Positions 5,831 through 52,578 of a DNA stretch of 64,000 bases are shown piece by piece. The number at the start of each line of letters is the position of its first letter. Position 1 is the stretch's first letter. The position numbers were made by a program, and so were the translations under genes. A model generated the notes under the pieces. The model ran no database searches. It was not told the DNA's origin and saw nothing but the letters and a program-made list of their open reading frames with translations. Source of the stretch: a virus (lineage: Duplodnaviria; Caudoviricetes); the IMG/VR virus record IMGVR_UViG_3300017700_000931, positions 224,001 to 288,000 of that record; one strand, written 5' to 3'.

Positions 5831-8347
5831 ATGAAGAAGGATGTTCTACCGAAGGTAAAAATTGTTATGAAGAATGCCTTCGAAGAAGCGAAGGCTTTTA
5901 GTGATATTAAACTAAGACCGGAGCATATAATGATGTCAATGATTACTGATGATGACAACAAATGTGTTGATATCCTAAAAGAATTAAAGGTTGACTTAAG
6001 TGAATTATATGATAGATTGAGTAGATATTTGATTGAAAGTGATTTGATACCAAGAATTACTACTTCAGCAAATGTTGATTTACCACCAAGTGAACTAACA
6101 ACTAAAATTTTTAAAACAATTGATAACGAATGCGACGAATTAGGTGATGCCGCAATAGATTTAACACATATAATGTTAGCTATCTTAAATCAAGATTCAC
6201 CAACAACTAGTATCCTACTTGAAATGGGAGTAAACTATAAAAATTTCAAAAACCTTATTATGAATAAAAACGAAGAAACAAAAGGTTCATACGATGAATC
6301 AGATGAAATGAATGAAGGTTCTAAATCAATCAACAATAAGAAAAAAAACACGACAACGAAAACACCAGTTTTAGATAACTTCTGTAGGGACGTTAGTAAG
6401 GCTGCTGAAGATGGTTTAATTGACCCAGTAGTTGGTAGACATAATGAAATCAAACGTGTTTCAACAATCCTATCTAGAAGAAAGAAAAACAATCCAGTTT
6501 TAATTGGAGAACCCGGAGTTGGTAAAACTTCTATTGTAGAAGGATTAGCCCAACTTATCAAAGATAAAAAAGCACCAAGATGCCTTTTAGAAAAAAGAAT
6601 TTATTCATTGGACCTTGCTTCAATTGTTGCTGGTACAAAGTATCGTGGACAATTTGAAGAAAGAATGAAAGCGATTCTTGAAGAATTGAAAGAGAACCCA
6701 AATGTAGTATTGTTTATTGATGAGTTACATACCATCGTAGGTGCTGGTAATGCTAGTGGTTCGTTGGATGCATCCAATATCTTTAAACCAGCATTGGCTC
6801 GTGGTGAGATACAAGTAATTGGTGCTACAACACTTGATGAGTTCCGTGAAAACATCGAAAAAGATGGTGCATTAACTCGTAGATTCCAACAAGTTTTAAT
6901 TGAGGAACCGACTAACGAAGAAACTGTCACAATCCTTATGAATATTAAGGATAAATACGAAAATCACCACAAGGTTAAGTATACACGAGAAGCAATTGAA
7001 GAATGTGTTAAGATGGCTGATAGATATATCTCTGATAGAGCTATGCCAGACAAAGCAATCGATATTCTAGATGAAGCTGGAGCTATTACTAATGTTGACA
7101 TTGAAGTTCCAGATAATATTAAAAAATTAGAAATCAAAAAGGTTGAAATTGAAGCTAAAAAAGTTGCTGTTGTTGCAAAACAACAATATGAAGAAGCTGC
7201 TAAATTGAGAGATGACGAAAAGAAAGTTGAGGAAGATATTGAAAAAGCTAAAAAAGAATGGATTGAAAGTTTAGATAAAGAACGAACAATCATTACTGTT
7301 GAATTGGTTGCCGAAGTAGTTTCCAATATGACTGGTATTCCACTTAGTAAAGTTTCAACTGAAGACACTAAACAATTGGCTCAAATGGAAGCTAATCTTT
7401 CTGGAGCTGTAATCGGACAAGATGAGGCTGTTATTAAGGTTTCTAAAGCAATCAAAAGAAGTAGATTGGGGATTAGAAAAGGTGGTAAACCAATCGGTTC
7501 ATTTATTTTCTTAGGACCAACTGGTGTAGGTAAAACTTATCTGGCCAAATTACTCGCCGAATATGTTTTTGGTGATAAAGATGCGTTGGTTCGTATTGAT
7601 ATGAGTGAATACATGGAGAAATTCTCTACATCCAGATTAATCGGGGCACCTCCGGGGTATGTCGGATATGAAGAAGGTGGTAAATTGACTGAAGCAATTC
7701 GTCGTAAACCTTACTCAGTCGTATTGTTTGATGAAATTGAAAAAGCACATCCTGATGTCTTCAATCTATTATTACAATTACTAGATGAAGGACAACTTAC
7801 TGATTCACTTGGACGTAAAATCGATTTCAAAAATACTATGGTAATCATGACATCAAATATTGGTGTTAAAGAATTGAATAGTTTTGGAACTGCGGTTGGA
7901 TTTGCTACTGGTGATACTATCGTAAAAGAAGAAAAAAGAGCTCACGATATTATCGAAAAAGCACTAAAGAAAAAATTCCCACCAGAATTTCTTAATCGTT
8001 TGGATGATACAATCATCTTCAATTCATTGAAAGAAGAAGACATTCATAAAATCATTAAAATTGAAATTAAAGATGTCGAAAGTAGAATGGCCGAACTTGG
8101 TTATAAAATTAAGTTAGACAAAAAAGGGATGGAATATATTGCCAAACAAGGTTACGACCAAGAATTTGGTGCCAGACCATTAAGTCGTGCAATTCAAAGA
8201 TACATCGAAGATACAATTGCCGATGAAGTGATTAATGGGAATGTCCAACAAGGGGATACCATCAAAATTAGTTACAATAAAACTAAGGATGAAATGGTCA
8301 TCAGCACGGAAAAATCTTCCAAGGAAGAAACTACCGATGAAGAGTAA
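5831..8347 (+). CDS. clpC: ATP-dependent Clp protease ATPase subunit, ClpC type
   Basis: Clp N-domain, Walker A GEPGVGKT and GPTGVGKT, FIDELH, UVR-like KQQYEEAAKLRD, GAPPGYVGYEEGG, FGARPL. Confidence 0.95.
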   Translation: MKKDVLPKVKIVMKNAFEEAKAFSDIKLRPEHIMMSMITDDDNKCVDILKELKVDLSELYDRLSRYLIESDLIPRITTSANVDLPPSELTTKIFKTIDNECDELGDAAIDLTHIMLAILNQDSPTTSILLEMGVNYKNFKNLIMNKNEETKGSYDESDEMNEGSKSINNKKKNTTTKTPVLDNFCRDVSKAAEDGLIDPVVGRHNEIKRVSTILSRRKKNNPVLIGEPGVGKTSIVEGLAQLIKDKKAPRCLLEKRIYSLDLASIVAGTKYRGQFEERMKAILEELKENPNVVLFIDELHTIVGAGNASGSLDASNIFKPALARGEIQVIGATTLDEFRENIEKDGALTRRFQQVLIEEPTNEETVTILMNIKDKYENHHKVKYTREAIEECVKMADRYISDRAMPDKAIDILDEAGAITNVDIEVPDNIKKLEIKKVEIEAKKVAVVAKQQYEEAAKLRDDEKKVEEDIEKAKKEWIESLDKERTIITVELVAEVVSNMTGIPLSKVSTEDTKQLAQMEANLSGAVIGQDEAVIKVSKAIKRSRLGIRKGGKPIGSFIFLGPTGVGKTYLAKLLAEYVFGDKDALVRIDMSEYMEKFSTSRLIGAPPGYVGYEEGGKLTEAIRRKPYSVVLFDEIEKAHPDVFNLLLQLLDEGQLTDSLGRKIDFKNTMVIMTSNIGVKELNSFGTAVGFATGDTIVKEEKRAHDIIEKALKKKFPPEFLNRLDDTIIFNSLKEEDIHKIIKIEIKDVESRMAELGYKIKLDKKGMEYIAKQGYDQEFGARPLSRAIQRYIEDTIADEVINGNVQQGDTIKISYNKTKDEMVISTEKSSKEETTDEE

Positions 8348-10257: not shown

Positions 10258-10922
10258 GGGCCAGATACTGCGATTTGCTCTATGTATTTGGAGATTGATT
10301 TCTGGTCGGACAAAAAAAAACCATCGTAGATTTCTCCATTATTAGCATTTATTACCCAGTCCGGTTCTAACCAATCAATCACATCATCATGACAAGTAGC
10401 AATAACCACGTTTTTTATATTATTTTTTTTAATGTATTTTGAAAGAGATACTGATGCAGCCTTCGCTACATTTCTATCTACAACCGACGTGAATTCATCC
10501 AATACTGCATTGTCTTTAATTTTTCTGGCTAAATCGGCCCTAAATTTTTCACCATTGGATAACACATGGTATGGTTTATACCAACTTGGGATAGTATTCA
10601 ATCCAACGGCACCTAATTTATTTATAGCTTCATCTGGCGTATCAAAATGAGACATGATGGATTTATTTATTTCCCAGCTAGGTTGTAATTCTTGACCAAA
10701 TTCATTCAATAGGGTACTTTTTCCAGAACCACTGGAGCCATAAATAACGCCAATATTAAATTCAGATGGTAATAGTTTTGGTTTTTCCCATGGGAAGAAT
10801 CTTGAGGTTCCGTCAAAAGTACAATCAAATGCTTTCTCACTAGCCATGATAAACTCATCCTTTTCAACGGACGAAGTTAGTGGTATTAGTTGTTTTGATA
10901 ATTGTTCTATGATATTCCTCAT
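10233..10922 (-). CDS. Soluble ABC-type ATPase
   Basis: Walker A GSSGSGKS, signature LSNGE, Walker B LDEFTS, switch ATCH; no TM partner nearby. Confidence 0.9.
   Translation of the reverse strand: MRNIIEQLSKQLIPLTSSVEKDEFIMASEKAFDCTFDGTSRFFPWEKPKLLPSEFNIGVIYGSSGSGKSTLLNEFGQELQPSWEINKSIMSHFDTPDEAINKLGAVGLNTIPSWYKPYHVLSNGEKFRADLARKIKDNAVLDEFTSVVDRNVAKAASVSLSKYIKKNNIKNVVIATCHDDVIDWLEPDWVINANNGEIYDGFFLSDQKSISKYIEQIAVSGPCLKSIII
10312..10320 (-). other. Candidate -1 slippery site (U9) joining the ABC ATPase to the GNAT
   Basis: GGT TTT TTT TTG; the -1 frame reads FVRPEINLQIHRANRSIWP-MFKEHHYL. Confidence 0.65.
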
Positions 10923-12187: not shown

Positions 12188-13645
12188 CTACGCTTCAACT
12201 ATATCTGACAACATAGCTGATGGTAAAAGTCTTTTTAATTTTTTATAATTCTTCTCTCCAATTTCAGCCTCTCTAACTGAAATTCTATAAAGTTTTCCAC
12301 CTCTACTCATATCCAACTGCCCAATTTCTTCTGGAATATCAGTAATCTTGTTACCAACAAGATTTAGGAATATCAAACTTTTACAATCACCAATTTCTTT
12401 TGGTATTGACGTTAATTTGTTTTTGGGAACTGACAATACTTCTAACTTAGGTAAGCTAAACATACTCGGATTTAATTCCCTCAGAGATGTCTCCCCCAAG
12501 TAAATGGTTTCAACGTTTTTAAATCTAGACAAATCAGGTAATTTTGGTATCTCTCTCTTTTTAAATCTTATTGTTGGTTGGTCCACATCTTGAATATCAA
12601 ATAAAATATCCGTAAAACCAAACGAAATTAAATAATCAATGTAAAAATTCTCATTTAAATTTCCATTAAATGCTTTCGCTAATGGCGTTAGTTCTTCGTA
12701 GAAGAAATTTGATAATGCTTCACTCTTCGAAAGAATCGAATCATAAATATTCTTATTGGCACCATTACTTCTATCTCTCAACTGTTTGCTTTCAAAATGG
12801 ATTTGATACATCATATCGTTCGGAATAGAACTTGTATCAAATTCACCATTTAAAAATCTGTTATCTATGATAATATATATTCTAGATTTATTTGAAATTG
12901 GTGTTTTATAATTAGTGTAACTATCAAACATACCATTACCTTGTTTAGTCGTACACCAACTAGCAAACCCATCAAACAAAACATTAGCATCCCTAGTTAA
13001 TGGAATAAATAATGTGAAATTTCTATCTCTAACTGGCATCAAAGCATGTCCGGCATCAACAAAACGCTTCATAGCTCTTTCAAAATCTGATGCATCTCGC
13101 TCAATAAACGGGTCAACCGAATCAAAGAGTTGTGCTAGGTTTTGATATTGATTGATATTTGTGGTATCAGTCATATTTTTAAGAGCGTAGTTTGATTCTG
13201 TTAATTCTTTGAACAGACGTTTACGTTTGTTGCTATCAAACAACTCTAGATACTCATTAGCTTGCGGTAAATCTTCAGCACCAAATCTAATTGCGTCATC
13301 AATCTTACCATCCTTAATCAATCTAGTGAAAACAGTTAACATCCACTGTAAGTAGATTTTATTAGGCGTTGGGTCAGCCGCAATCATTGCGGCAAAAATG
13401 TCCTCATGGATTCTTACAGTTTTTCTAACCCTAGATTTATCCTCATTAGTAATGATTGTATCAAGGATAGCAAGTGTTTTCTTGGTCATAACACCCATAT
13501 GAGTGTCAGTGTGGTCAGCTACTTCAATTTTAGTAATCTCACGACCTTCATTAGTTAATGATTCAACAATACCATTCATTTCTTCTTCCATGAATACATT
13601 GTATTTATCAGCCAAAAATTCTATCCTCTTTTCAATCTTTACCAT
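12188..13645 (-). CDS. Leucine-rich-repeat protein with an N-terminal WCT-motif domain
   Basis: C-terminal LRRs (LEVLSVPKNKLTSIPKEIGDCKSLIFLNLVGNKITDIPEEIG); FASWCTT; start placed at MVKIEKRI. Confidence 0.8.
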   Translation of the reverse strand: MVKIEKRIEFLADKYNVFMEEEMNGIVESLTNEGREITKIEVADHTDTHMGVMTKKTLAILDTIITNEDKSRVRKTVRIHEDIFAAMIAADPTPNKIYLQWMLTVFTRLIKDGKIDDAIRFGAEDLPQANEYLELFDSNKRKRLFKELTESNYALKNMTDTTNINQYQNLAQLFDSVDPFIERDASDFERAMKRFVDAGHALMPVRDRNFTLFIPLTRDANVLFDGFASWCTTKQGNGMFDSYTNYKTPISNKSRIYIIIDNRFLNGEFDTSSIPNDMMYQIHFESKQLRDRSNGANKNIYDSILSKSEALSNFFYEELTPLAKAFNGNLNENFYIDYLISFGFTDILFDIQDVDQPTIRFKKREIPKLPDLSRFKNVETIYLGETSLRELNPSMFSLPKLEVLSVPKNKLTSIPKEIGDCKSLIFLNLVGNKITDIPEEIGQLDMSRGGKLYRISVREAEIGEKNYKKLKRLLPSAMLSDIVEA

Positions 13646-13702
13646 AACAATCTTTTTGCAAATATACAAAGAATTATTTAAATAATCAATATAATGACAA
13701 AA

Positions 13703-13730
13703 AAAAGGTGCAACCATGGTTGCACCTTTT
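13703..13730. terminator. Perfect palindromic terminator
   Basis: AAAAGGTGCAACCATGGTTGCACCTTTT. Confidence 0.8.
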
Positions 13731-41129: not shown

Positions 41130-42038
41130 TTAAATTTTAATTCCGGCGTAATCTAAGGCGAATGCCAGACTTTCTTGGTTGGTACGGTAGTTTGTACCAA
41201 CTGTCAAACTCTCAATTCGACCATTCTCACGTTTTGGTGCTGACTTGTCGTGCGTTGTCCAACGGGTTACTCCCGAATGAAGTCCCCAAAGGTTTTGCCC
41301 CTTTTGGTTCATCTCAATTTCAATGGCGTTGTATAATGACTCCATCGCATTCATTGAGCGGGTTGACTTGTCAATCAATTCGCTTGTCATTGTACGGTCA
41401 AAGCCTAAAATGTGCTTTACCATTTTGTTAGCCAATTCTTTGCTAACTTTGTTCGACTGGAACGCATTGTAAATCTCAATCATTCTCAGGCTCTCAGAAA
41501 GTGACAATTCAATCAATGAAGGAATCGTAGCCATTTTTTCAACCAAGTTAGCTGAATGTCTCCATTTAGCCTGACCAGAACGGTAGAAACGAAAGAACTG
41601 GTTTTGACATGACATTGTTAAGTCACCAATACCAACTGACAATCCGGTGCTACCGTCGTTAGAGTCAATAATGGTCACATAACGTTTAATGCTATCCTCA
41701 CCAACTTTTGACATACCGTCAACGGCTAATTGAATAAACACTTTACGACCACCATCAAGCGCACCTGCTTTTGAAACTGACAACTCACCGAATTTGTTCA
41801 TTCCTGTTAATACCAGTTCAACCAATTCGTCGTTTTGACTCACCACATACGAACCTTTAACAGTATTCAGAATCTCACCGCTCTTGTCATTGTATAGACC
41901 GAAATAATCGCTCTTTACATTATCCACGCTTTGAACACCCTCTGGTGAGGTAATAATACGTGGAGCAACCAATGGCAATTTTTCAATGCGGAAATCTAAA
42001 CCGAACTGAGCTAAAATTTGTTGTGCTTTTTCTTTCAT
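41130..42038 (-). CDS. DUF932-family (phage/plasmid-like) protein
   Basis: YVVSQNDE, AGALDGGRKVFI, NDGSTG, CQNQF, NLWGLHSGVT motifs. Confidence 0.88.
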   Translation of the reverse strand: MKEKAQQILAQFGLDFRIEKLPLVAPRIITSPEGVQSVDNVKSDYFGLYNDKSGEILNTVKGSYVVSQNDELVELVLTGMNKFGELSVSKAGALDGGRKVFIQLAVDGMSKVGEDSIKRYVTIIDSNDGSTGLSVGIGDLTMSCQNQFFRFYRSGQAKWRHSANLVEKMATIPSLIELSLSESLRMIEIYNAFQSNKVSKELANKMVKHILGFDRTMTSELIDKSTRSMNAMESLYNAIEIEMNQKGQNLWGLHSGVTRWTTHDKSAPKRENGRIESLTVGTNYRTNQESLAFALDYAGIKI

Positions 42039-42208
42039 AATAAGGAGTTAATTTAAGTTAGTAATTTATTTGACTGGTACAAATATAAGATAGTATTTCC
42101 GAATAAACAAATATATTATAGTATATTTTCAATTTATTTTTAAAATCCTAACGTTTATGCGGGTTTGAGTTAGTGAAATAAAATAATACGAAAATATATG
42201 CTTTTTTA

Positions 42209-42312
42209 TTTGGTAGATTGAAATAAAGTTCTTATCTTTGTTTTGTCAGTGGTGAATAACTGAGACGGGTCGACCAGAAAAGTTGAGAGAGTAGACTCCA
42301 CTGTGCCTTATA
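42209..42312 (+). ncRNA. Promoter plus candidate small RNA, copy 2
   Basis: TTTGG...TATCTTTG promoter; same conserved blocks as copy 1. Confidence 0.5.
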
Positions 42313-42372
42313 TTTTTTTACACATGAATTTTCGACCTGTATAATATTTGACATGACCAAATAATTTACACA

Positions 42373-42405
42373 AAAGTTATTAACAATTATTTTGTTAATA
42401 ACTTT
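42373..42405. repeat. 14-bp perfect inverted repeat containing DnaA-box-like TTATTAACA
   Basis: AAAGTTATTAACAA / TTGTTAATAACTTT. Confidence 0.75.
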
Positions 42406-43016
42406 GATGAAAAAAGTTACATAAAAATTTGGTAGAACCGAATTAATGTATTATCTTTGTTATGTACATTCCATATCTGCATAAACGGCAGACAGCCACC
42501 CCCTACCCTTTACACTGGGTTTTAGGGGGTAGAGTCGTTACACCTCTTTTTTAGGGGGTACCGAAAGGAACCGTTACATACCTATGTTAATAGCCTGTTT
42601 TTGCCTTACTGCAAAGATACTAAAAATATCTGACAACTGCAAGGAATAGAGGATATTAGACCACGCTTTTTATAAAAATATAATTGCTCAAAAACTTGCA
42701 TATTTCAAAAAATTTGTGTAAAGTATTGAGCGTGTTTATGTTGTACTTCATATTTTTTAGAGGTATCCGGTGCATCACATATCCAATAAGCAGGGTTTTT
42801 GGTATAATTTACCACGATTTACCACTTTCTACCATTTAATGACAACGTGCTAACTCAAGTACAAAAAGGACGCATAACCTATCTGAATGCGGATGCCATA
42901 TTACACAAGATGTAGCACACAATGGGCCTTGAGCTGGGGTATACACAAATGTGTACTAGGGTATGTCATGGTACAGGGTGTCCTGTGGGATTTAGGGTAC
43001 ACAAATGTGTCCTTAC

Positions 43017-43253
43017 TTACTGTGACCCCCAAGCACAATAATGTTCTTCATTAACAAAAAATCCTTTAGATAGGTCTTCACCAAAATCAACGAAATTATC
43101 TTTAATATGTTCTATGGAAAAGAAGTATTGTTTAACCGGATTAGATTCATTAATTACATTATAATATAATTTACCATTAAGTGATTTAATAAATCTAGTT
43201 CCAGCTGGACAAGATGGTAAAGCCATATATAGTATTACTACATCAGGTAGCAT
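43017..43253 (-). CDS. LPxCP-family paralog 1
   Basis: ALPSCPAGTRFIKSLNGKLYYN...KQYFFS. Confidence 0.8.
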   Translation of the reverse strand: MLPDVVILYMALPSCPAGTRFIKSLNGKLYYNVINESNPVKQYFFSIEHIKDNFVDFGEDLSKGFFVNEEHYCAWGSQ

Positions 43254-43474
43254 TATAGGGATATGTATGGAGTATTATCATCGAAGAAGAAGTCATAGTT
43301 ATTGAGGATTTCTTCTCTGGTGAATGAGTAGTCTTTAAAGTTGTTATTGATTCTATCTTCATCGGATAGGATGAGATAATAGAATGATTGGTTAAGAGAT
43401 GCTTTGAAGAACATTCCGGCTGGGCAAGATGGGAGGTCTTTGAGCAGTTTAATATTTTGAGGGAATTGCATCAT
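43253..43474 (-). CDS. LPxCP-family paralog 2
   Basis: DLPSCPAGMFF...KDYSFTREEI. Confidence 0.8.
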   Translation of the reverse strand: MMQFPQNIKLLKDLPSCPAGMFFKASLNQSFYYLILSDEDRINNNFKDYSFTREEILNNYDFFFDDNTPYISL

Positions 43475-43764
43475 AAGCTACAGAATGTATTAAACCATTT
43501 GGTATGAATATCTGCTGCATCTAGTGTATTTCCAAACGTTAAAAATTCAGCACTAAAATTATGTGAGAAGAATGTTGTTATTATGTCTGGCGTAATGATT
43601 GTGGATAATTCATTAATTGAAAAAAAGTATTGTTTTATTTCATTTGAACCCTCATTATAGTAGAAGTTACCATCGATGGTTTTAATGAATGATGTACCTG
43701 CTGGGCAGTTAGGTAGTTCTTTAACTAGGGTTAATATGCTAGGTTGTATTTTAAATTGCATCAT
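43471..43764 (-). CDS. LPxCP-family paralog 3
   Basis: ELPNCPAGTSFIKTIDG. Confidence 0.8.
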   Translation of the reverse strand: MMQFKIQPSILTLVKELPNCPAGTSFIKTIDGNFYYNEGSNEIKQYFFSINELSTIITPDIITTFFSHNFSAEFLTFGNTLDAADIHTKWFNTFCSL

Positions 43765-44060
43765 AAGTTTGACCAACTCCAATTATCGGCAATATGTTTG
43801 AGAAAGCGTTCATGTGAAATATTACAATGCGTTGTATGGTGATTATTATATGCAGCATATGTAACTATTGTTGTAAAAAATGATTCTGTTACGTTTGTAC
43901 TAAGAGACTTTAATACTTCATCAATTGTAAATATATAATCCTTAATATCATTAGATGATTCATTAAAATAGAATTTATTATCTAATGATAAATAGAACTT
44001 TGTACCAACCGGACAAGATGGTAGAGACTTAAATAATATGAGTATATGAGGTAATGTCAT
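43761..44060 (-). CDS. LPxCP-family paralog 4
   Basis: SLPSCPVGTKFYLSLDN. Confidence 0.8.
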   Translation of the reverse strand: MTLPHILILFKSLPSCPVGTKFYLSLDNKFYFNESSNDIKDYIFTIDEVLKSLSTNVTESFFTTIVTYAAYNNHHTTHCNISHERFLKHIADNWSWSNL

Positions 44061-44365
44061 TCGAGGTGTAGCCAATTGCTATAGTAAGTGCGCCAAATTG
44101 CTTTATAATCTTCTCGACCAGATACGGTTTGATAAAACTCCATATTTTCATGAGTATCTTTAAATACAAAGAATGTTTTATCTAATATGGGTGACATGGC
44201 CATTAGGATTTCTTCTATTGTGAATACATATTGCTTGGTTGAATCCTCTGGGGTATTATAATACTGACTACCATCGAATGACTTAATGAACTTAGTGCCT
44301 ACTGGACAAGATGGAAGGTTCCTGTGCAATACTAGAATATGTGGTATGTATTTAGGTCTAATCAT
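44057..44365 (-). CDS. LPxCP-family paralog 5
   Basis: NLPSCPVGTKFIKSFDG. Confidence 0.8.
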   Translation of the reverse strand: MIRPKYIPHILVLHRNLPSCPVGTKFIKSFDGSQYYNTPEDSTKQYVFTIEEILMAMSPILDKTFFVFKDTHENMEFYQTVSGREDYKAIWRTYYSNWLHLE

Positions 44366-44622
44366 TATAGTGTATGATTAAAGAGTGTATCCATTATAGT
44401 AGATGAGACAATATAAGTTTTACCGAATGGTATGAAGAAATCTGGATTAGTTAGTATTTCTTCTCTAGAGAATATGTATTGTTTTTCTGATTGGGATGTT
44501 TCGTTTGTTATGTTATAGAAGAATTGCCCATCTAGGGTTATTTTGAAGATGGTTAATTTAGGGCAGCATGGCAAATCCTTGACCAATAAGGTTTCTGTGA
44601 AGGATATATCTCGTGTATTCAT
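44365..44622 (-). CDS. LPxCP-family paralog 6
   Basis: DLPCCPKLTIFKITLDG. Confidence 0.8.
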   Translation of the reverse strand: MNTRDISFTETLLVKDLPCCPKLTIFKITLDGQFFYNITNETSQSEKQYIFSREEILTNPDFFIPFGKTYIVSSTIMDTLFNHTL

Positions 44623-44661
44623 TGTTTTGTTGATGTTTGTGGTGTTATAGAAGAATAATGG

Positions 44662-45072
44662 TTATTTTAAGAAGGCAGTATGGGAAATCTGTATTCCAGA
44701 ATTAAAGCCAACACTTAATGAGTGTGACTTATTTTTTGTTTGATTAGGTTCATCCTCATATTCATCCCATTTAATATCATCGCTCATATGAAATGACTCA
44801 GGGTATCTAATCATTCGTTCCTTTATATCAGGGAATATTCTTTCCCAATCCGTTAGTACGCATCTGAACTTATAATGAATTAATGCCCCATGAAAGAAGA
44901 AGTCTGGATTATCTATTACCTCTTGTATTGTGAATGAATATTCTTTTATATTAGCTTCATCATCCGGCATGACAAGTGTATAGTGTTTTTCATCAAGGCT
45001 AAGGTTGAATTGGCTTAACCTAGGACAATTCGGTAGGCTTTTTAATAGCGTTATAGTTTTATCCAGCATCAT
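44662..45072 (-). CDS. LPxCP-family paralog 7
   Basis: SLPNCPRLSQFNLSLDE. Confidence 0.8.
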   Translation of the reverse strand: MMLDKTITLLKSLPNCPRLSQFNLSLDEKHYTLVMPDDEANIKEYSFTIQEVIDNPDFFFHGALIHYKFRCVLTDWERIFPDIKERMIRYPESFHMSDDIKWDEYEDEPNQTKNKSHSLSVGFNSGIQISHTAFLK

Positions 45073-45370
45073 GAATAGATTTGAATAGGGTGTTTAAATC
45101 AAGACCCAGCGATGTATTAAAATATTTCTCTTCTGGTACTAGAGTACCTAATGCATTAGCCCAAACTAAAAGCCTTTTGTAAGTTGTTTTATCACCCATA
45201 TAAAAGAATTCTTTATTGGATTCAACTTCATCAATTGAAAATATGTATTGCTTTGTGGTATCATCAGGTTCATTATAATAATATTTCTCATCTAATGATA
45301 GATAGAATTCTGTCCCAAGTGGACAATTAGGTAACGATTGCTTTAGCGTTATGATTTGGTGCTTACTCAT
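45059..45370 (-). CDS. LPxCP-family paralog 8
   Basis: SLPNCPLGTEFYLSLDE. Confidence 0.8.
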   Translation of the reverse strand: MSKHQIITLKQSLPNCPLGTEFYLSLDEKYYYNEPDDTTKQYIFSIDEVESNKEFFYMGDKTTYKRLLVWANALGTLVPEEKYFNTSLGLDLNTLFKSIHDAG

Positions 45371-45698
45371 TTAAAAATCTTCTTCTATGTGATGGTGAAG
45401 CACCATATATTTCATTAAAAGCATCACCTCTATCATGATGAAGCCAGATTTCTTTATTTCCATGAAAAAAGAAAGCATTATTAAATATAACCTCATTAGG
45501 CAAGAACATATATTGTTTTATATTTCCCCTCATGTCATCCTCGATGAGTGGATTATAGTAACATGATTCATCTAGTGCTAGGACGAATGATTCACCTCTT
45601 GGGCAATTGGGTAGATTAACCATAAGGATTACTTCTTTGGGCAATTCGGTTAATTGTATGTCTTCTGGTTTCATTGGTCTGCAAGCCATTTGTTTCAT
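45363..45698 (-). CDS. LPxCP-family paralog 9
   Basis: NLPNCPRGESFVLALDE. Confidence 0.8.
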   Translation of the reverse strand: MKQMACRPMKPEDIQLTELPKEVILMVNLPNCPRGESFVLALDESCYYNPLIEDDMRGNIKQYMFLPNEVIFNNAFFFHGNKEIWLHHDRGDAFNEIYGASPSHRRRFLNE

Positions 45699-46000
45699 TG
45701 GTTTAGTACTTGTATTATTTGGTTAAGCATATGATTGATTCTTTGATTGGTATTATCATGAATATCAATTTCACCACATGGGTTCATGTTATATGATATG
45801 AAGAAATCTGGATTGGTTAGGATTTCTTCCATGGTAAAGAAATATTGTTTAAACTTATCATTAATGACTTCTTCATCTGTCATTATGTGATAATACTGAC
45901 TACCATCTAATGTGGCTCTAAATTCTCGGCCACTTGGACAAGACGGTAGACTTTTACATAGGATTAGGTGGTCAGGTAATTCCATTATATGTTTGTTCAT
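45695..46000 (-). CDS. LPxCP-family paralog 10
   Basis: SLPSCPSGREFRATLDG; start placed at MNKHIMELP. Confidence 0.8.
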   Translation of the reverse strand: MNKHIMELPDHLILCKSLPSCPSGREFRATLDGSQYYHIMTDEEVINDKFKQYFFTMEEILTNPDFFISYNMNPCGEIDIHDNTNQRINHMLNQIIQVLNQ

Positions 46001-46230
46001 TAAGTAATAGTTGCTTAATAGAATACCTTCTAAAAAAACCATCAAGAAATTCTTTAAAGGCATCCTTATCACTATATATTAAAATTTGATTACCACAAAG
46101 AATAACATTATTTCTATGACGTATTTCCCACCTAATACTCATTGATGTTATAGATAATATTTTCACCTTTAATTTTAAGTTATGTTTCTTACCTACCTTA
46201 ATAATCAATTTAACCATAGATTGAGAGCTT

Positions 46231-47011
46231 TTAAAGTTTTTCATCTATCAAAGCATGCGTTAACCAGAAAGCAATTGAGGTTGCTTTGGCTAGGTTATAA
46301 TCGTTATATCTCATGAAGGCATTTTCATCCCAAGGTTCCGGCTCTGGGCTATCACCAATGAATGCTGTATTCTGCTGTATTGGTTTTATCCTGATAGGAT
46401 TTGCACATTGAAAGTAATTCATCAAGTGATTTTGACATTGGTTTTCGATTATCTGCATCAAATGCATCATAACCCCATCTACCTCTCATGAAGTTCATAA
46501 TATCTGTTGGGGTTCTGAAGATATCATCAGCTTTCTCAGTTCTTATAGCCAAACGAACATCATAACCATTTCTCTGATATTTTTCACCATCCGGCAGATA
46601 TAGTTGTTCCATTAAAGCATTTTGTGGTACTTCTGATGGCACTACAAGAAAATATGGTTTGTCGTATGTATCTGGGTGAACCTTTGATGCAATTGGGGCC
46701 AACTGGGAGTTCAGTGCTTCTTCTAGTTTGGTTAAACTTTCTTTCACCAAATCATCTAGTTTACCATACCAATTTTTATTATGTGGATTACTACCATATT
46801 CAAATTTTTCTAAGTCAATCCAATATTGATAGACAAATGAATGTGTTGGTTCGGAACAACCTGTTCTTTCGGTGATATTAGCGAATGACCAAACACCATC
46901 AGAATTGGTATGAGGTTTTAACACTAGGATATTTTCGTTTTGCATTTTTGGTGCAACCGGATTTGAACCTCTTACAGCACTTACTTCAAAATAGATGTAT
47001 TTAATCTTCAT
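46231..47011 (-). pseudogene. Gene apparently frameshifted by a 10-bp tandem duplication
   Basis: TGCTGTATT-C-TGCTGTATT at 46363-46381; removing 10 bp gives one 257-codon frame. Confidence 0.6.
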
Positions 47012-47339
47012 AATTTTCCTTTATGTTTTTCTTTCTGAATTCTTCAATATCTTCAGTCTTTATTTTACCAGCCGCTACATTCTTACCTAGGGCCTGAAGA
47101 TAACCTTCTTCTTCAATATCACCTAGGAAGAAAAATTCAGAATTATATACAACTTCTTTAACTGAGAAGATGTATGCTTTTAGCTTACCACTTATAGCTT
47201 CTTCATCAGTCATTGAGTGATAGTAATGATTGCCATCAACGGTTAGTTTAAACAATCGCCCAACCGGACAATTAGGTAATGCTTTTTTGACCATTACGAT
47301 TTTAGGTGGTTCAAGTAATTCTTTTGGAGGATTTGCCAT
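47001..47339 (-). CDS. LPxCP-family paralog 11
   Basis: ALPNCPVGRLFKLTVDG...KAYIFSVKEV. Confidence 0.8.
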   Translation of the reverse strand: MANPPKELLEPPKIVMVKKALPNCPVGRLFKLTVDGNHYYHSMTDEEAISGKLKAYIFSVKEVVYNSEFFFLGDIEEEGYLQALGKNVAAGKIKTEDIEEFRKKNIKENYED

Positions 47340-47340
47340 G

Positions 47341-50300
47341 TTATTCAGGTTTAAATTCTTTTGCGTCTAATAAATCTATTATGGAATCAAGGTGTTCGAG
47401 GTTTTCAATTACTGTTATGAGTTGTGGTTCGCCAACGCCATCATTAATATCAAATAGCTCGTGTGTATTGGTATTGTACATGTAATCCCAATTACCATAA
47501 ATGAATTCAATGTTATTACCTTTAAGGCAAACGAATCCACGTTCTTTGAGAATATCTGGTGTAATCATATTTTACAAAGATAAGAATTATAAATCATGTT
47601 TGACAGCAAAATCAAAAATATAATTTAAAAATAAATCACTAGTATCAGATGGTCCTTTACCAATTAATAGAATTGGAATCCACCATGTGATTGGTAGTAG
47701 AACAATGTATACCACGAAAATGATATAAATAATTCCCAGATATATTCGTTTAATTATCTTCATGTACAAACATTATAAATTGCAGCAATAAAAAAGCTAA
47801 TTATCATTCCTATTGCGATACCTAGTTTTAGTGTTGCTTTATCTTCTTCGGTAATATCTGGGACGACAATCCCATTTTCTTTAACGTATCGTGGTGGAAC
47901 AATAATTGTTTTGACTTGTGATTTAACATCATCTAAGCTAATATTGAATTTCTTTTCAATATCGGCCTTTGTACCATATATGGTTTTACCAATGTTTAAT
48001 TGATGAGCATCCTCATATACTACCATGAATTTATCCACGAAACCAGTTTCGATAACGTGTATTAATTCCGGCTCACCTTCCCATTGGAATGTTTTGCAAT
48101 TATTCTTGATTGGTATCCATTTAATATTTTCGTGCTCTTCCATGATGTCAAGTTAATATTACTTCTAGTTCGTGTCTCAATGCAATAAGTAGTGTCTCTT
48201 TATCCACTTCATAGCATTTTTTAGTTGTGTTAACACTGTTACGACTATCGCCGGAATGATAATATTTTTCACCTTGTCTTGGTATCACATCTAACATAAG
48301 GTCTAATGAATCTGATATATCAAATTCTTCTGAATCATTATACATTCTGTATGCCCATAATTCAGAAAACCATATACGTTTTACTTCATCAAATAATAGT
48401 TTATCAGGAAGACTATCAGACACTCTTTTAATGAACTCATCAATCTTAGCTCTTTTGAATTCAGTTGGGTCACATGGTTTAAAATGCTGTAGGTCCAAAT
48501 TATAATCTCTGTTAACATAGTTACCATTTTCATCAAAGAAGCAACTAATTGAGCCATATCCTTTAAAATATTCGAATTTAAAACCATGATATGTTGAAAT
48601 CTCAATTCTCTCATGGTATCTAGCAGCTACGCTAACTTCATCATATCCTTCAACTCTATGTGGATTCTTAGGCATAGCATCTTTAATACCTAATAAGATA
48701 TCATGTCCATCAGTTACGGTACCAAAGTTTTGTGTGAAGTAATCACCAACATAAAATTGTTTATTGATTTCCGTCAGCAATTTTTCTTTGGATGATGCTG
48801 GTTCAACAATGACATGTTTACCATGTCTATTTTTCACTAAGACTTCGGTATCACTAATGCGATTTATTACTTCACATTTACCTTGAAACATATCCTCTAT
48901 GATATTCTTATCTTCGATAACCCTAACGGCTTTAATTTTTGCTACCAATTCTTTATCAGTATTCTCAAATACTGAATAACCTTTTTGGTCAGCGTAATCC
49001 CCAATTCGTTTCATAATTATTTTTAATTAAATAGAAATTTATCACTTGTTGCTTCTACTTTAAAATCTGGTTGTTCTCTGTGGTGTGCCTTTATTACTGC
49101 AACCAATTTCTTGTCACTAGTTGGGTTGTTTTCTCTTATCTCAATACTATCAATAATGAAAAACCCTTTAAGACTAAAATTTTCACTGTATATTTCAGTA
49201 CTATTGGTTGGAGTGCAAGAAATCTTTTTCATATTTAAAGTAGAAATCTTTTCTGTTGTCCTAGCTATTTTTATTAACCTTTCCAAACATTTAGATTCTG
49301 CCTCTTCGTATGTTCCATTATAATTGATATCAGAAGTAACAAGTTTATCCGTTTTAGTATTGTATATCCTATAGGAAAATTCTTGTGAACCAATTTCTGG
49401 TAATCCAGCTAAGGCGTATTCAGTTCTAAACCATCTAAACACTTGTTGGTATGTTGGTGCCTTACATATTGAAATATTAGTTCTCATGTATGATTCAATT
49501 TCACTAGGTTTACCAACTCCAAGTCCGATTATATTTTTATTTTCTGGTTCTCCAGAAGTGCCAGAATTATAATAATAAGCGAAACAAGGTTCATTGAAAT
49601 CTAAATCTTTCAAACCTAACGCTTCTTCATATGTAATAAAATCTTTATTTACCATAACTTATCCATTTGATATTGTAATATCTTTAGGGTATTTAGCTTC
49701 CATTTTTTCGACGAAATCAATTATATCGTCAGCAATTTCGTCTCGCTCACCATGTGGTTGATTTGCTAGAAGCCTTTCCAGTTTATCGATGTGTTCTTTC
49801 GCCACAACATAATCTACATCCATTCCCATAATTCCTTAGTTATTTGTATAACCTTTATCTTCCCACCATTTTAACAAATCTGAGTCAGTAATTTTGTATA
49901 AGTCATCCTCACATTCCATCTTCAGAACCATTTGATTATATCCGGCATATGCAGAAATACAAACTTCAATGCACATACCAACTTTACTTGATAGATACTT
50001 TAAAAATTCCATAGCTAATTCAGGAAGGTCTTTCATTGGTAAGCTAAGCATTTTAATTGCTTCTTCTACTGCAAGATTGTTCGTTGTTTGTTCCATTATA
50101 TTGATGATTTAATTATCAGTAAACATAAATTCTGCAACAGGTTCCTTTGTTTTGGACCATAAGACAATCAATTCATTTCGTTTGGCCTCCATGTCTTTAA
50201 TCAATTGCAATTCTCTTTCTTCACCGTTTTCTTCCCACCAATTGGACCGGATAGAACATTCAATTGGGTCTTGGTTAATTAACCTCACTTCAAAGCTAAT

Positions 50301-50942
50301 GATATTAATCTTCATGTTTTTTATTCCCTCAACCACAACTGGTGTTATCTCACAACAATACTTTAAATCGATAAGTGAATCATCTATCTTCACGAGCATA
50401 TCCCTTGAGGATTCATTGTTGAATCGTTTATCTATGAAGGCTTCTACCATGTTAAGTATTCTGACTTCATTGGCTCCGCTTTCAAAGATATGGTCTATCT
50501 CAAGTTTGAGTTGTCTGGTAAATTCTTGGTTCATAAATTATGAGTTTTTTTGTTGTTTTTTTACAACTTCAATTAGTTTTCTAAGTACTTCCAATTGTGC
50601 TTCAGGATGTGAATTGTAAACACCCACTGAATTATATTCACCTCTTTGCCAATACCGTCCTTCATAGGTTCTCGGTTCTTTTGTTAAATAAGGTTGAATC
50701 CAACTTTCGATAGGCCATTCAACATATACAGTTGTTTTAGCAAACCATCTAAATGCTTGTTGATATAATGGAGCGGATGTTACATCACCATTGACCAGAT
50801 TATCATTCCAATTTCTTGGTTCAGGGTTTATGTTTAAAAAATTATCAGTTCCTTCAACAAAAACACCATAACATGGTTCATTAAAACCTAATTGTTTTAG
50901 AGCTAATGCCTCATCCGGTGCAACAAAATCTTTTTTTTCCAT
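47341..50942 (-). other. Run of short hypothetical CDSs (47341..47568, 47587..47769, 47760..48143, 48148..49014, 49023..49655, 49836..50096, 50109..50534, 50538..50942)
   Basis: Closely spaced ORFs; 49023 and 50538 share the F(V/I)..E.AL.LK.L.F.EPC...AP.YQQ.FRWF family motif. Confidence 0.7.
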
Positions 50943-50943
50943 A

Positions 50944-52578
50944 TTAATTAATACAATGAAATTCTTGAAGTATTGGTTTTAATGTTAATCCATTAATGTC
51001 ATTACTATACTCCAATAAATTAAGTTTAATATTTAAATCTTTAAATTTTTTGTTAATTTTATTAGTATAATCAATAACTTTATTTGGAAATTCTTCAGCT
51101 ACTAGATATCCATTATTTGAGTCCAATTCAATCATGTATTGTAATAATTGAGAAACATCTTTAACTTCTGCTTTATATAGTTTAACTTCCCACGGAATAT
51201 TATCTTCTTTGATGTATATATCTAATTTATTACCTGAACCAGACAAGACATATTCCTCCTTAGTTGAACCAATAATTGTTTTACCATAATACATACTACC
51301 AAAACTATTTAAACTTTGAGCGATTGTATCACGTAATTGATGTTCATCTGACATTTTTTGTTGTCTAATATATGGGTTAGATATCAAATTCATCCCACTT
51401 TTGTTGATGCTATTTTTAAATGATTTTGCTGATTCTTCATTATAAAATTTAAAATTATCTGAAGAACTAATTTTACCATTTTTCAAAAACAATTTTATTT
51501 GTTCTAGAATATTTAAAACATCATCACTTCTAATAATTCTATTTTTTGTAATAACAGTTTCCACACCATACCAACGTACTTGTCCTCGTAAAAATTGAGT
51601 CCAATTACTACCTGTATCATTAATAAAATCAACAACATGTTCTTCTATAAGAATGTCATAAATAAAAAAATCAAAACCACCATACTTAGCAGCAATATTA
51701 TATGGATAATTACTTCCTGATTTTAATAATTTTGGGTCCATATCAAGCATTTGATAATGCTTGATTCCTATAATATCATTTTTAGGTGAATAACCAAATT
51801 TTAATATTGCTTTAACATTACCACATGTGAACTCTTTACCATCAATTATAGGGTCTTCAATCTTTTTTGTCTTGTCAGCATCCCATTCTGGAGGATAATA
51901 ATATATTGGTTTAACACTATTGATTATTTCAGTCCTTATTTTTTCTTCATCAACAATTGTTAAGTTAAATTTGATTGAGGTATCAGTTAAAATTAATTGA
52001 TATTTTTTTCCTAAAATATTCTTCATTTGATTAATACCTTTATGAGTTGAAATTTTAAAAAATTTGTTCTTATCTTTTGAAACAAATATTTCAACTTCAG
52101 TTCCGTGGTCACCATCAAAATTAATAGGCGTTAGACTTATATCATCTCCAATACTAAATTCATCAATAGAATAACCATCTATTAATTTTATATGTTCTTC
52201 ATTAATAGCTTTTGTTTTAACTTCAAATTTTTCGCCTAAAAATAAAACACTAGATTTTAAACCAACATCATGTTCATTAATACTATTTTGAGTTTCCTTT
52301 GCGAATGGTGTAAGGGCCATATTTATTTCATGAGATGGTATCCCACACCCATTATCCTTTATAATAACTTTATCAACAACTTTAATATATTTGTCACCCT
52401 CCAATTCTGATTTAATGATAAACTTAAGTTCTATTGATAAATTATTAACTTTACTAGCGATAGAATTATTTATTAATTCATATATTGCTTCTTCTGGTGA
52501 CTCATATGGTGTTTTACTTAACCCCTTAAGTAAATTGACTGGTTTAGTACCTTTTATTTTAATTTGTGTTGGTTTCAT
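50944..52578 (-). CDS. GHKL (MORC/Hsp90-like) ATPase fused to a C-terminal PD-(D/E)XK nuclease
   Basis: AIYELINNS, IKDNGCGI, VGLKSS, HGTEVEI; C-terminal KLDI...WEVK...VSQLLQYM. Confidence 0.85.
   Translation of the reverse strand: MKPTQIKIKGTKPVNLLKGLSKTPYESPEEAIYELINNSIASKVNNLSIELKFIIKSELEGDKYIKVVDKVIIKDNGCGIPSHEINMALTPFAKETQNSINEHDVGLKSSVLFLGEKFEVKTKAINEEHIKLIDGYSIDEFSIGDDISLTPINFDGDHGTEVEIFVSKDKNKFFKISTHKGINQMKNILGKKYQLILTDTSIKFNLTIVDEEKIRTEIINSVKPIYYYPPEWDADKTKKIEDPIIDGKEFTCGNVKAILKFGYSPKNDIIGIKHYQMLDMDPKLLKSGSNYPYNIAAKYGGFDFFIYDILIEEHVVDFINDTGSNWTQFLRGQVRWYGVETVITKNRIIRSDDVLNILEQIKLFLKNGKISSSDNFKFYNEESAKSFKNSINKSGMNLISNPYIRQQKMSDEHQLRDTIAQSLNSFGSMYYGKTIIGSTKEEYVLSGSGNKLDIYIKEDNIPWEVKLYKAEVKDVSQLLQYMIELDSNNGYLVAEEFPNKVIDYTNKINKKFKDLNIKLNLLEYSNDINGLTLKPILQEFHCIN

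Follow-up and report, generated by a model that had tools for sequence, protein, structure and literature searches.

The 64,000-nucleotide stretch analyzed here (the window) spans bases 224001 to 288000 of the virus record IMGVR_UViG_3300017700_000931, and it contains an array of 11 minus-strand genes whose products share an N-terminal module with the motif LPxCP. The record is 362,532 bp long and has direct terminal repeats, which indicates that it is a complete jumbo phage. Ten of the genes are consecutive (43017 to 45985) and the eleventh stands apart at 47001 to 47339; all of the frames are intact. When a profile of the family was run against the whole 362.5-kb genome, it matched exactly these 11 places, with E values of 3e-26 to 5e-36, and a chance resemblance is thus excluded. 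An earlier note on this DNA had described such an 11-copy array with a common core, and the 11 open reading frames (ORFs) do align. Its ten-gene run and separate eleventh copy stand, but the run most likely ends at 45985 rather than at 46000, and the starts of c3, c4, and c10 needed correction. The likely starts, taken from the orthologs in two related phage contigs (L003 and L004), are the ATG codons given in Table 1; that of c10 opens the sequence MELPDH.

Within the ten-gene run, eight of the nine junctions overlap by 1 to 14 nucleotides (nt) and are of the ATGA or TAATG type, in line with the mostly coupled genes of the note; the remaining junction is a 39-nt gap. The Bacteroidota −7 promoter motif, TAnnTTTG, does not occur on the coding strand within 43017 to 47339. 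The nearest upstream sites (47575 to 47582 and 47613 to 47620) lie just ahead of a 75-amino-acid (aa) gene, and in the adjacent 29- to 42-kb region, unlike the array, a TATATTTG box is found every 0.4 to 1.8 kb. Since there is no internal motif and the nearest boxes lie upstream of 47568, motif placement suggests that the array is a single operon, read as one long transcription unit. Scans for sigma-70-type promoters and for terminators gave scores no better than those of shuffled sequences, and a candidate hairpin past the end of the array does not exceed shuffled sequence in stability (z 0.54).

Table 1. Features of the LPxCP array (window coordinates)
Feature	Coordinates	Strand	Remarks
Copy c1, 78 aa, core + 12-aa tail	43017..43253	-	Orthologs L003 11906-12160, L004 6157-6414
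Copy c2, 73 aa	43253..43474	-	Window only; without ortholog in L003 or L004
Copy c3, 97 aa from ATG 43764 (ORF reaches TTG 43782)	43471..43764	-	Window only
Copy c4, 99 aa from ATG 44060 (ORF reaches TTG 44075)	43761..44060	-	Diverged L003 ortholog, none in L004
Copy c5, 102 aa	44057..44365	-	
Copy c6, 85 aa, motif LPCCP	44365..44622	-	
Copy c7, 136 aa, longest tail (77 aa)	44662..45072	-	
Copy c8, 103 aa	45059..45370	-	
Copy c9, 111 aa	45363..45698	-	
Copy c10, 96 aa from ATG 45985 (ORF reaches GTG 46072)	45695..45985	-	Tail 91-94% conserved in relatives
Copy c11, 112 aa, only basic core (net +2)	47001..47339	-	Sister to single-copy outgroup; AlphaFold-modeled
Nonfamily basic ORF, 90 aa, pI (isoelectric point) 10.2	45972..46244	-	Inside array; position conserved in L003 and L004
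Nonfamily ORFan, 219 aa	46352..47011	-	Sits in place of family copy and 5' part of 152-aa gene
Nonfamily acidic ORF, 75 aa	47341..47568	-	Probably first gene of transcription unit
Bacteroidota-type -7 box TATCTTTG	47575..47582	-	Nearest upstream of array

The core alignment reveals a common N-terminal module of about 60 aa in all 11 copies. The L, P, C, and P of LPxCP are invariant in 11 of 11 cores, which confirms what had been read by eye for the motif and its Cys, and an F, a K, a Y, a further F, and an FF pair are invariant as well. Pairwise identity among the cores is 33 to 54% (mean, 42%). Over 82 family members the Cys is at least 90% conserved, and it is retained where a flanking Pro has been lost (PSCL, PSCM, NCS). 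The module is followed by tails of 10 to 77 aa that have no significant BLAST similarity to one another, as expected from the description of the tails as unrelated; a search with the c7 tail found no look-alike. Repeats between copies at the DNA level are likewise as inconspicuous as had been claimed, being just 60 to 74% identical over about 100 nt, which indicates that the duplications are old and that there has been no recent gene conversion.

The array proteins, taken here to be soluble, are small and mostly acidic (pI 4.3 to 6.4), and no N-terminal hydrophobic segment, signal peptide, or membrane segment was seen in their translations. Ten of the 11 cores are neutral or acidic (net charge, 0 to −6), c11 alone being basic, with the same net charge in all three phages. 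The arginine of the loop CPKGR, which is nearly invariant in the single-copy relatives that serve as an outgroup, is kept in c10 and c11 only and is absent from the other nine cores; the derived copies have thus altered a conserved basic surface. Some core columns are fixed within trios of orthologs but differ between paralogs, notably in the CPxG(R/T)xF(K) strand. In the alignment, this would look like the pattern that distinct, conserved specificities give.

Selection on the copies was estimated as the ratio of nonsynonymous to synonymous substitution rates (dN/dS), pooled by the Nei-Gojobori method between orthologs over about 460 core codons and about 250 tail codons; only pooled values are used because 60-codon cores are noisy for single genes. 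Between the window and L003 the ratio is 0.27 for the cores and 0.37 for the tails, and between the window and L004 it is 0.21 and 0.43, the tail values being inflated by the alignment of nonhomologous residues where tails have been replaced. The cores are under purifying selection. Conserved neighbors of the array (the DUF932, 374-aa, and 181-aa genes) have ratios of 0.03 to 0.06, and the copies are thus kept by selection yet less constrained than core genes. Several tails are shortened or wholly replaced between orthologs, and the tail of c10 is more conserved than its core.

The related contigs L003 and L004 are syntenic with the window, and a third, L005, repeats L004; two of these three are short-read Logan assemblies. 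Family copies number 11 in the window, 11 in L003 (one of them disrupted), and 9 in L004. In a maximum-likelihood tree of the cores, c1 and c6 to c11 form strongly supported ortholog trios, from which it follows that the copies had multiplied before the three phages diverged. Eight paralogs are common to all three. Together with the core dN/dS, the trios uphold the earlier view of an old and retained expansion. The c11 core is sister to the single-copy outgroup (support, 93/81) and is therefore the most ancestral-like copy, in a tree whose deep order is uncertain because it rests on just 60 columns.

Copy content has turned over among these relatives. Besides c2 and c3, found in the window only, and c4, absent from L004, a copy with the motif PSC[LM] is present in L003 (8137 to 8400) and L004 (3228 to 3488) and absent from the window, where the 219-aa ORFan stands in place of it and of the 5' part of the neighboring gene. 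That gene, of 152 to 154 aa, is intact in L003 (8457 to 8915) and L004 (3545 to 4009), and its 3' remnant occupies 46231 to 46470 of the window; with the ORFan (46352 to 47011) and the basic 90-aa ORF (45972 to 46244), it makes up the three nonfamily genes or remnants between c10 and c11. The ORFan has no match in Pfam, PHROGs, or the ESM Atlas. DNA identity to L003 is 82 to 87% in the array and 95 to 97% in the flanks, and identity to L004 is 66 to 74% in the array and 94% in the flank. This makes the array a hot spot of local divergence. Gene cassettes in the array region have been replaced between relatives, and the whole 43- to 50-kb stretch is a hypervariable accessory region.

Other differences between the relatives concern single copies or the DNA upstream. 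A 185-aa copy of L003 (P0017; 8916 to 9473, plus strand), found in neither the window nor L004, has an insertion of about 70 aa between the YY and K-x-Y-x-F strands, which indicates that the module tolerates a large loop insertion. Also in L003, a 161-bp segment (10532 to 10692, corresponding to window 44912 to 45072) is inverted; it spans the start and first approximately 53 codons of the c7 ortholog, which it breaks, and it alters the tail of the c8 ortholog. This inversion may be real or may be an artifact of the Logan assembly. Upstream of the array (window 48148 to 50400 versus L003 6649 to 7004), the relatives differ by whole-gene cassettes: ORFs of 288 and 210 aa in the window are absent from L003, and a 236-aa ORF of L003 joins a different N terminus to a homologue of the window's 127-aa gene.

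The family is rare. An exhaustive profile search over 1.84 billion protein representatives returned 78 proteins at an E value of ≤1e-3 and none at ≤1e-30. Long proteins with four to eight short stretches matching the profile (P0061, P0064, P0070, and P0085) were left out as likely repeat proteins. The best E values of the window copies were 0.011 against Pfam and 0.007 against PHROG, from a different single copy each. In a scan of 68 family members no Pfam family recurred and PHROG gave no match whatever, NCBIfam and PADLOC gave isolated matches to single members only, and PDB sequences gave no meaningful match. No match was obtained by megablast of the region against deposited phage genomes or by tblastn, with c11 and P0018 as queries, against 50,697 such genomes. 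Pattern scans of IMG/VR found no relatives, and a metagenome scan found none with c10 and 13 single-copy loci with the outgroup alignment. Every recovered locus outside the clade has one copy (L001, L002, L006/L009, L007/L008, and L010 to L022, which are 17 distinct loci, many on short contigs), and only in this phage clade has the family expanded.

The wider family has the consensus LxKDLPxCPKGRxFKxxxxGxxFHSMTDxExIxGKxKxYxFTKxEVxxNPxWF. Its members are mostly stand-alone proteins of 55 to 80 aa, with a minority having unrelated C-terminal extensions, and the module is N-terminal in most of them. Net charge in the outgroup spans +11 to −5, and many single-copy members are basic. They reside on phage-like contigs and on two contigs of Bacteroidota metagenome-assembled genomes (MAGs), and their neighbors are mostly genes of DNA or RNA metabolism. 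For example, ParA is a neighbor in L001, the family gene lies directly upstream of a PD-(D/E)XK-FtsK-like ATPase in L007, and L010 has methyltransferase-, nuclease-, and ligase-like ORFs nearby, as judged by translation motifs only. In L021 (3635 to 4246, plus strand), the module forms residues 1 to 58 of a 203-aa protein and is fused to an RNase H domain; the E value is 4.6e-26 for the module and 1.5e-9 for PF00075 (38.6 bits versus a cutoff of 25.8). An extension of this kind fits a targeting module joined to an effector.

The contig of one single-copy locus deserves separate mention. L006 (JAVTWD010000016.1; 375,071 bp) is binned as a Bacteroidota MAG, yet around its family copy it is gene dense and phage-like, with a radical SAM gene, an HNH-like ORF, and numerous small ORFs, and it may represent a further jumbo phage.

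An AlphaFold model of c11, made from an alignment of 82 sequences, has a confident core (predicted local distance difference test score [pLDDT], about 90) and low-confidence helical tails. For the core alone, the pLDDT is 95.1, the predicted template modeling (TM) score is 0.82, and the order of elements is b-b-b-a-b-a-b. In the models the LPxCP segment links beta1 to beta2, and its L and C are scored as beta-bridges. Nothing significant was found when the two models were compared with the PDB (Foldseek and VIA-align, wide), AlphaFold DB clusters, BFVD, and the ESM Atlas, the Foldseek E value being at least 0.07 in the PDB, AlphaFold DB, and BFVD. The best solved structure by VIA-align against the PDB was the SH3-like domain of RecD (5ld2_D; Z 4.3, root mean square deviation of 3.1 Å, 57 residues), followed by RecD2 (3e1s_A; Z 3.1) and by SH3 and KOW domains (Z about 3). 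These folds make up most of the top rows and recur among the weak matches, together with DUF4926, and they are binding modules, not enzymes; the SH3-like theme is also repeated in the ESM Atlas and AlphaFold DB searches. We read the core as a small barrel of SH3-like type from a family not described before, and we take this fold class as a lead and not as proof. A reading of LPxC..L as a leucine-rich repeat (LRR) was rejected, there being no LRR match in Pfam and the model being a beta-barrel rather than a solenoid.

In the ESM Atlas, the closest look-alike is the viral family DUF7399 (PF24132), with a TM score of 0.66 to 0.73 by query over 64 residues and of 0.37 to 0.40 by target. It is also viral and itself uncharacterized, and it has no sequence relationship to the core: a six-frame search of the whole genome with the PF24132 hidden Markov model (HMM; cutoff, 27 bits) gave 0 matches at an E value of ≤10, and the family is not among the hmmscan hits of the copies at ≤1. 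The hybrid-binding domain of RNase H1 (Cauli_VI, PF01693) is likewise not among the Pfam hits at ≤1, and no hybrid-binding-domain entry is found among the top 50 VIA-align or Foldseek rows. Literature searches found no paper mentioning DUF7399, nothing useful on DUF932, and nothing on comparable phage arrays.

Taken together, these results can be read as a docking module that stays constant and carries variable effector parts, and that has grown into a repertoire of binders or adaptors for host takeover or counter-defense. We put the probability of this reading at roughly 40%. The conserved module would dock on a shared platform, which could be a nucleic-acid structure or, alternatively, a conserved DNA- or RNA-metabolism protein of host or phage, and the beta2-beta3 residues, the variable loop, and the tail would give each paralog its own partner or effect. 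The outcome would be 9 to 11 binder or adaptor proteins, probably made from one operon in the hypervariable accessory region, whose purpose might be host takeover or counter-defense. The c11 protein keeps the basic CPxGR loop of the single-copy family, and the derived copies have lost the arginine and turned acidic, a shift suggesting that partners changed once the genes had duplicated. This docking-repertoire reading fits the turnover at a hypervariable locus, the purifying selection on the paralogs, the residues fixed within each of them, and the architecture of module plus extension. From these features we infer that the module docks, what kind of target it has, when the proteins are expressed, and any role against defenses, and anti-defense binding by the array proteins is plausible from context only. 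Phage diversity hot spots are enriched in defense and counter-defense genes, according to a preprint (bioRxiv 10.1101/2024.10.15.618418).

Several points weigh against this reading. The operon contains no known anti-defense gene or regulator and no helix-turn-helix (HTH) gene, and the neighborhoods of the single-copy members share no constant partner gene. A nucleic-acid platform is not a uniform prediction, given the range of outgroup charges from +11 to −5. The RNase H fusion is found in one lineage only (P0093 belongs to the same cluster), all of the fold matches are in the noise range (Z < 5, Foldseek E > 0.07), and part of the apparent relaxation of the tails is the alignment effect described above.

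The constant scaffold with variable regions proposed in the earlier note agrees with the conserved core, the dissimilar tails, and the paralog-specific columns, and its view of the family as old, retained, and unrecognized is borne out: the family is absent from Pfam, PHROG, NCBIfam, PADLOC, and the PDB, and neither a known housekeeping family nor a dN/dS of about 1 was encountered. The cores are more constrained than the tails in both comparisons, and the HMM search gave 78 representatives, the family being single copy outside the clade. The specific roles that it proposed fared less well, as set out with the alternatives below.

A different account, possible but doubtful, is that the module is itself a nucleic-acid-binding domain (KOW-, Tudor-, or SH3-like or an analogue of the hybrid-binding domain) and that the array proteins regulate or modulate phage replication, transcription, or RNA processing rather than bind host proteins. 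RNase H1 has an N-terminal hybrid-binding domain, and the L021 fusion has the same layout of a small N-terminal module, a linker, and an RNase H catalytic domain, although no array copy has an enzyme domain. The weak fold matches center on the SH3-like domains of superfamily 1 (SF1) helicases and on KOW domains, c11 is basic, as are many single-copy members (net charge, up to +11), and DNA-metabolism genes are frequent as neighbors. However, only one of the 11 array cores is basic, the loop arginine is missing from nine, some of the outgroup is likewise acidic, and no significant sequence or fold match ties the module to the hybrid-binding domain or another defined nucleic-acid-binding family. 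A separate reading that we regard as improbable would make LPxCP an unrecognized docking domain for some conserved part of nucleic-acid metabolism, with the basic ancestral forms (c11, the single-copy members, and the RNase H fusion) recruiting an effector and the acidic derived copies acting as decoys or inhibitors, each against a different host factor or defense sensor on the same platform, so that one fold would yield a combinatorial counter-defense array.

The paralogs might instead be subunits of one structural or regulatory hetero-oligomer, produced at set ratios from an operon with translational coupling, and the earlier note had indeed considered interacting subunits. The overlapping junctions, the lack of an internal promoter motif on the coding strand, and the eight shared paralogs would agree with this, but overlapping gene junctions are common in phage small-gene operons. 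Moreover, copy content varies among close relatives (c2 and c3 are in the window only, c4 is not in L004, two other copies are in L003 and/or L004 only, and one L003 copy is broken), and tails are shortened or replaced between orthologs. This turnover makes an obligate complex less likely, and we consider the idea as a whole to be a weak candidate.

Equally little is expected of chemistry at the LPxCP Cys, by which the proteins would be redox- or cofactor-dependent effectors using a thiol switch, a covalent intermediate, an intermolecular metal site, or a Cys-Pro heme motif. Cys-Pro dipeptides are heme regulatory motifs, which for LPxCP is a lead only, and the residue is as strongly conserved as described above, even where Pro is lost. 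However, no second conserved Cys or His could complete a metal site, there is no match to a redox or metal family, and the position of the motif in the beta1-beta2 segment, with L and C in beta-bridges, fits a packed structural role. With one invariant Cys and no conserved partner ligand, the redox or metal effectors of the earlier note thus find little support. That the copies are functionless duplicates drifting toward loss, as the variable copy number, the disrupted copy in a relative, and some shortened tails might suggest, is very improbable and is contradicted by 11 of 11 intact frames, by a core dN/dS of 0.21 to 0.27 over about 460 pooled codons, and by the persistence of eight paralogs as orthologs in three phages although the paralogs are 33 to 54% identical. 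As for an orphan-immunity array or a diversity-generating retroelement, no toxin gene or reverse transcriptase was present among the nearby ORFs examined, in the course of which no search was aimed at them.

Tandem accessory-gene families in large viruses are known, and the array has the properties of one: at least three adjacent paralogs, retained orthologs, a dN/dS well below 1, and copy-number variation. The module, the architecture, and the clade-specific expansion are new. The internal-protein (IP) locus of T4-type phages comprises small, fast-evolving accessory genes, and T4 IPI* counters a host restriction system. Like the array, the IP locus differs in content between close relatives and combines a conserved N-terminal element with variable remainders. 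However, its element is a capsid-targeting peptide of about 10 aa, whereas the array has a folded domain of about 60 aa and consists of one family throughout; it shows no sign of virion packaging or protease cleavage. The MGF360/505 genes of African swine fever virus and the amplification of poxvirus K3L are tandem families or gene accordions linked to host interaction, and they resemble the array in lineage-specific expansion of tandem paralogs and in copy-number variation. The array differs in being in a bacteriophage, in its much smaller proteins, and in the age of its duplications (60 to 74% DNA identity).

The SH3-like domains of SF1 helicases (RecD, RecD2, UvrD_C_2/SH3_13, Pif1 2B, and TraI), KOW, and SH3 may share with the modeled core a small five-stranded barrel-like topology, but identity is 9 to 17% and the scores are in the tool's common-arrangement range. 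Unlike these domains, the array proteins have the LPxCP motif and a pair of short helices, and they are stand-alone. Clusters of anti-CRISPR and other anti-defense genes are like the array in having small, mostly acidic ORFans in a variable region with quick turnover. The array differs from them as one paralogous family with no HTH gene, and the scan of the PADLOC defense-system library gave no consistent match. Anti-CRISPR clusters usually hold unrelated families and the HTH regulator Aca, according to one article (PMC13551039).

Bacteroidota jumbo phages are almost all uncultured, and most of their genes are ORFans. Here, the array defines an uncatalogued domain family of about 60 aa whose fold is predicted with confidence and which neither Pfam nor PHROG lists. 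The passage from a single-copy ancestor to 9 to 11 copies, each kept by purifying selection as tails change and copies come and go, is the pattern expected at a phage-host interface, and the family offers a small, easily expressed set of candidates for new host-takeover or counter-defense activities in Bacteroidota. The RNase H fusion is a first experimental handle on the binding target of the module. Should the proteins prove to be unremarkable paralogs with a structural or regulatory task, what is gained will be the annotation of a new domain only.

Three features point to a member of the Bacteroidota as the host of the phage. Shine-Dalgarno sequences are absent ahead of the array genes, TAnnTTTG is overrepresented (139 sites versus 104 ± 10 in shuffles), and the genome-resident relatives of the family are only on contigs of Bacteroidota and Bacteroidales MAGs. 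The GC content is approximately 32%, and the genes are short, tightly packed, and mostly on the minus strand. The phage also encodes an 838-aa ClpB-type double AAA+ ATPase (5831 to 8347, plus strand), a 509-aa LRR protein (12188 to 13717, minus strand), and a 544-aa GHKL-type ATPase (HATPase_c_3; 50944 to 52578, minus strand), and LRR proteins are likewise encoded on the contig carrying the family member P0012.

A ParB-like gene is found about 5 kb away from the array, which adjoins the DUF932 gene. We considered these neighbors as an anti-defense island and dropped the idea; the paper on plasmid leading regions does not mention DUF932. Directly downstream of the array, about 1 kb (42039 to 43016) has no convincing ORF, and a TATCTTTG box lies in this ORF-poor stretch (42612 to 42619, minus strand); the L003 counterpart holds an HNH-like 119-aa ORF (12792 to 13151). 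An Rfam scan of 41900 to 47700 gave no match. Finally, GC skew in the window from 42001 to 46000 is reversed (+0.12 to +0.13) relative to the adjacent minus-strand genes. The reversal is explained by the amino acid makeup of the array proteins, with more P and F and fewer G, A, and V, together with an excess of C over G at third codon positions (C, 0.168, and G, 0.104, versus 0.124 and 0.127 in the flanks).

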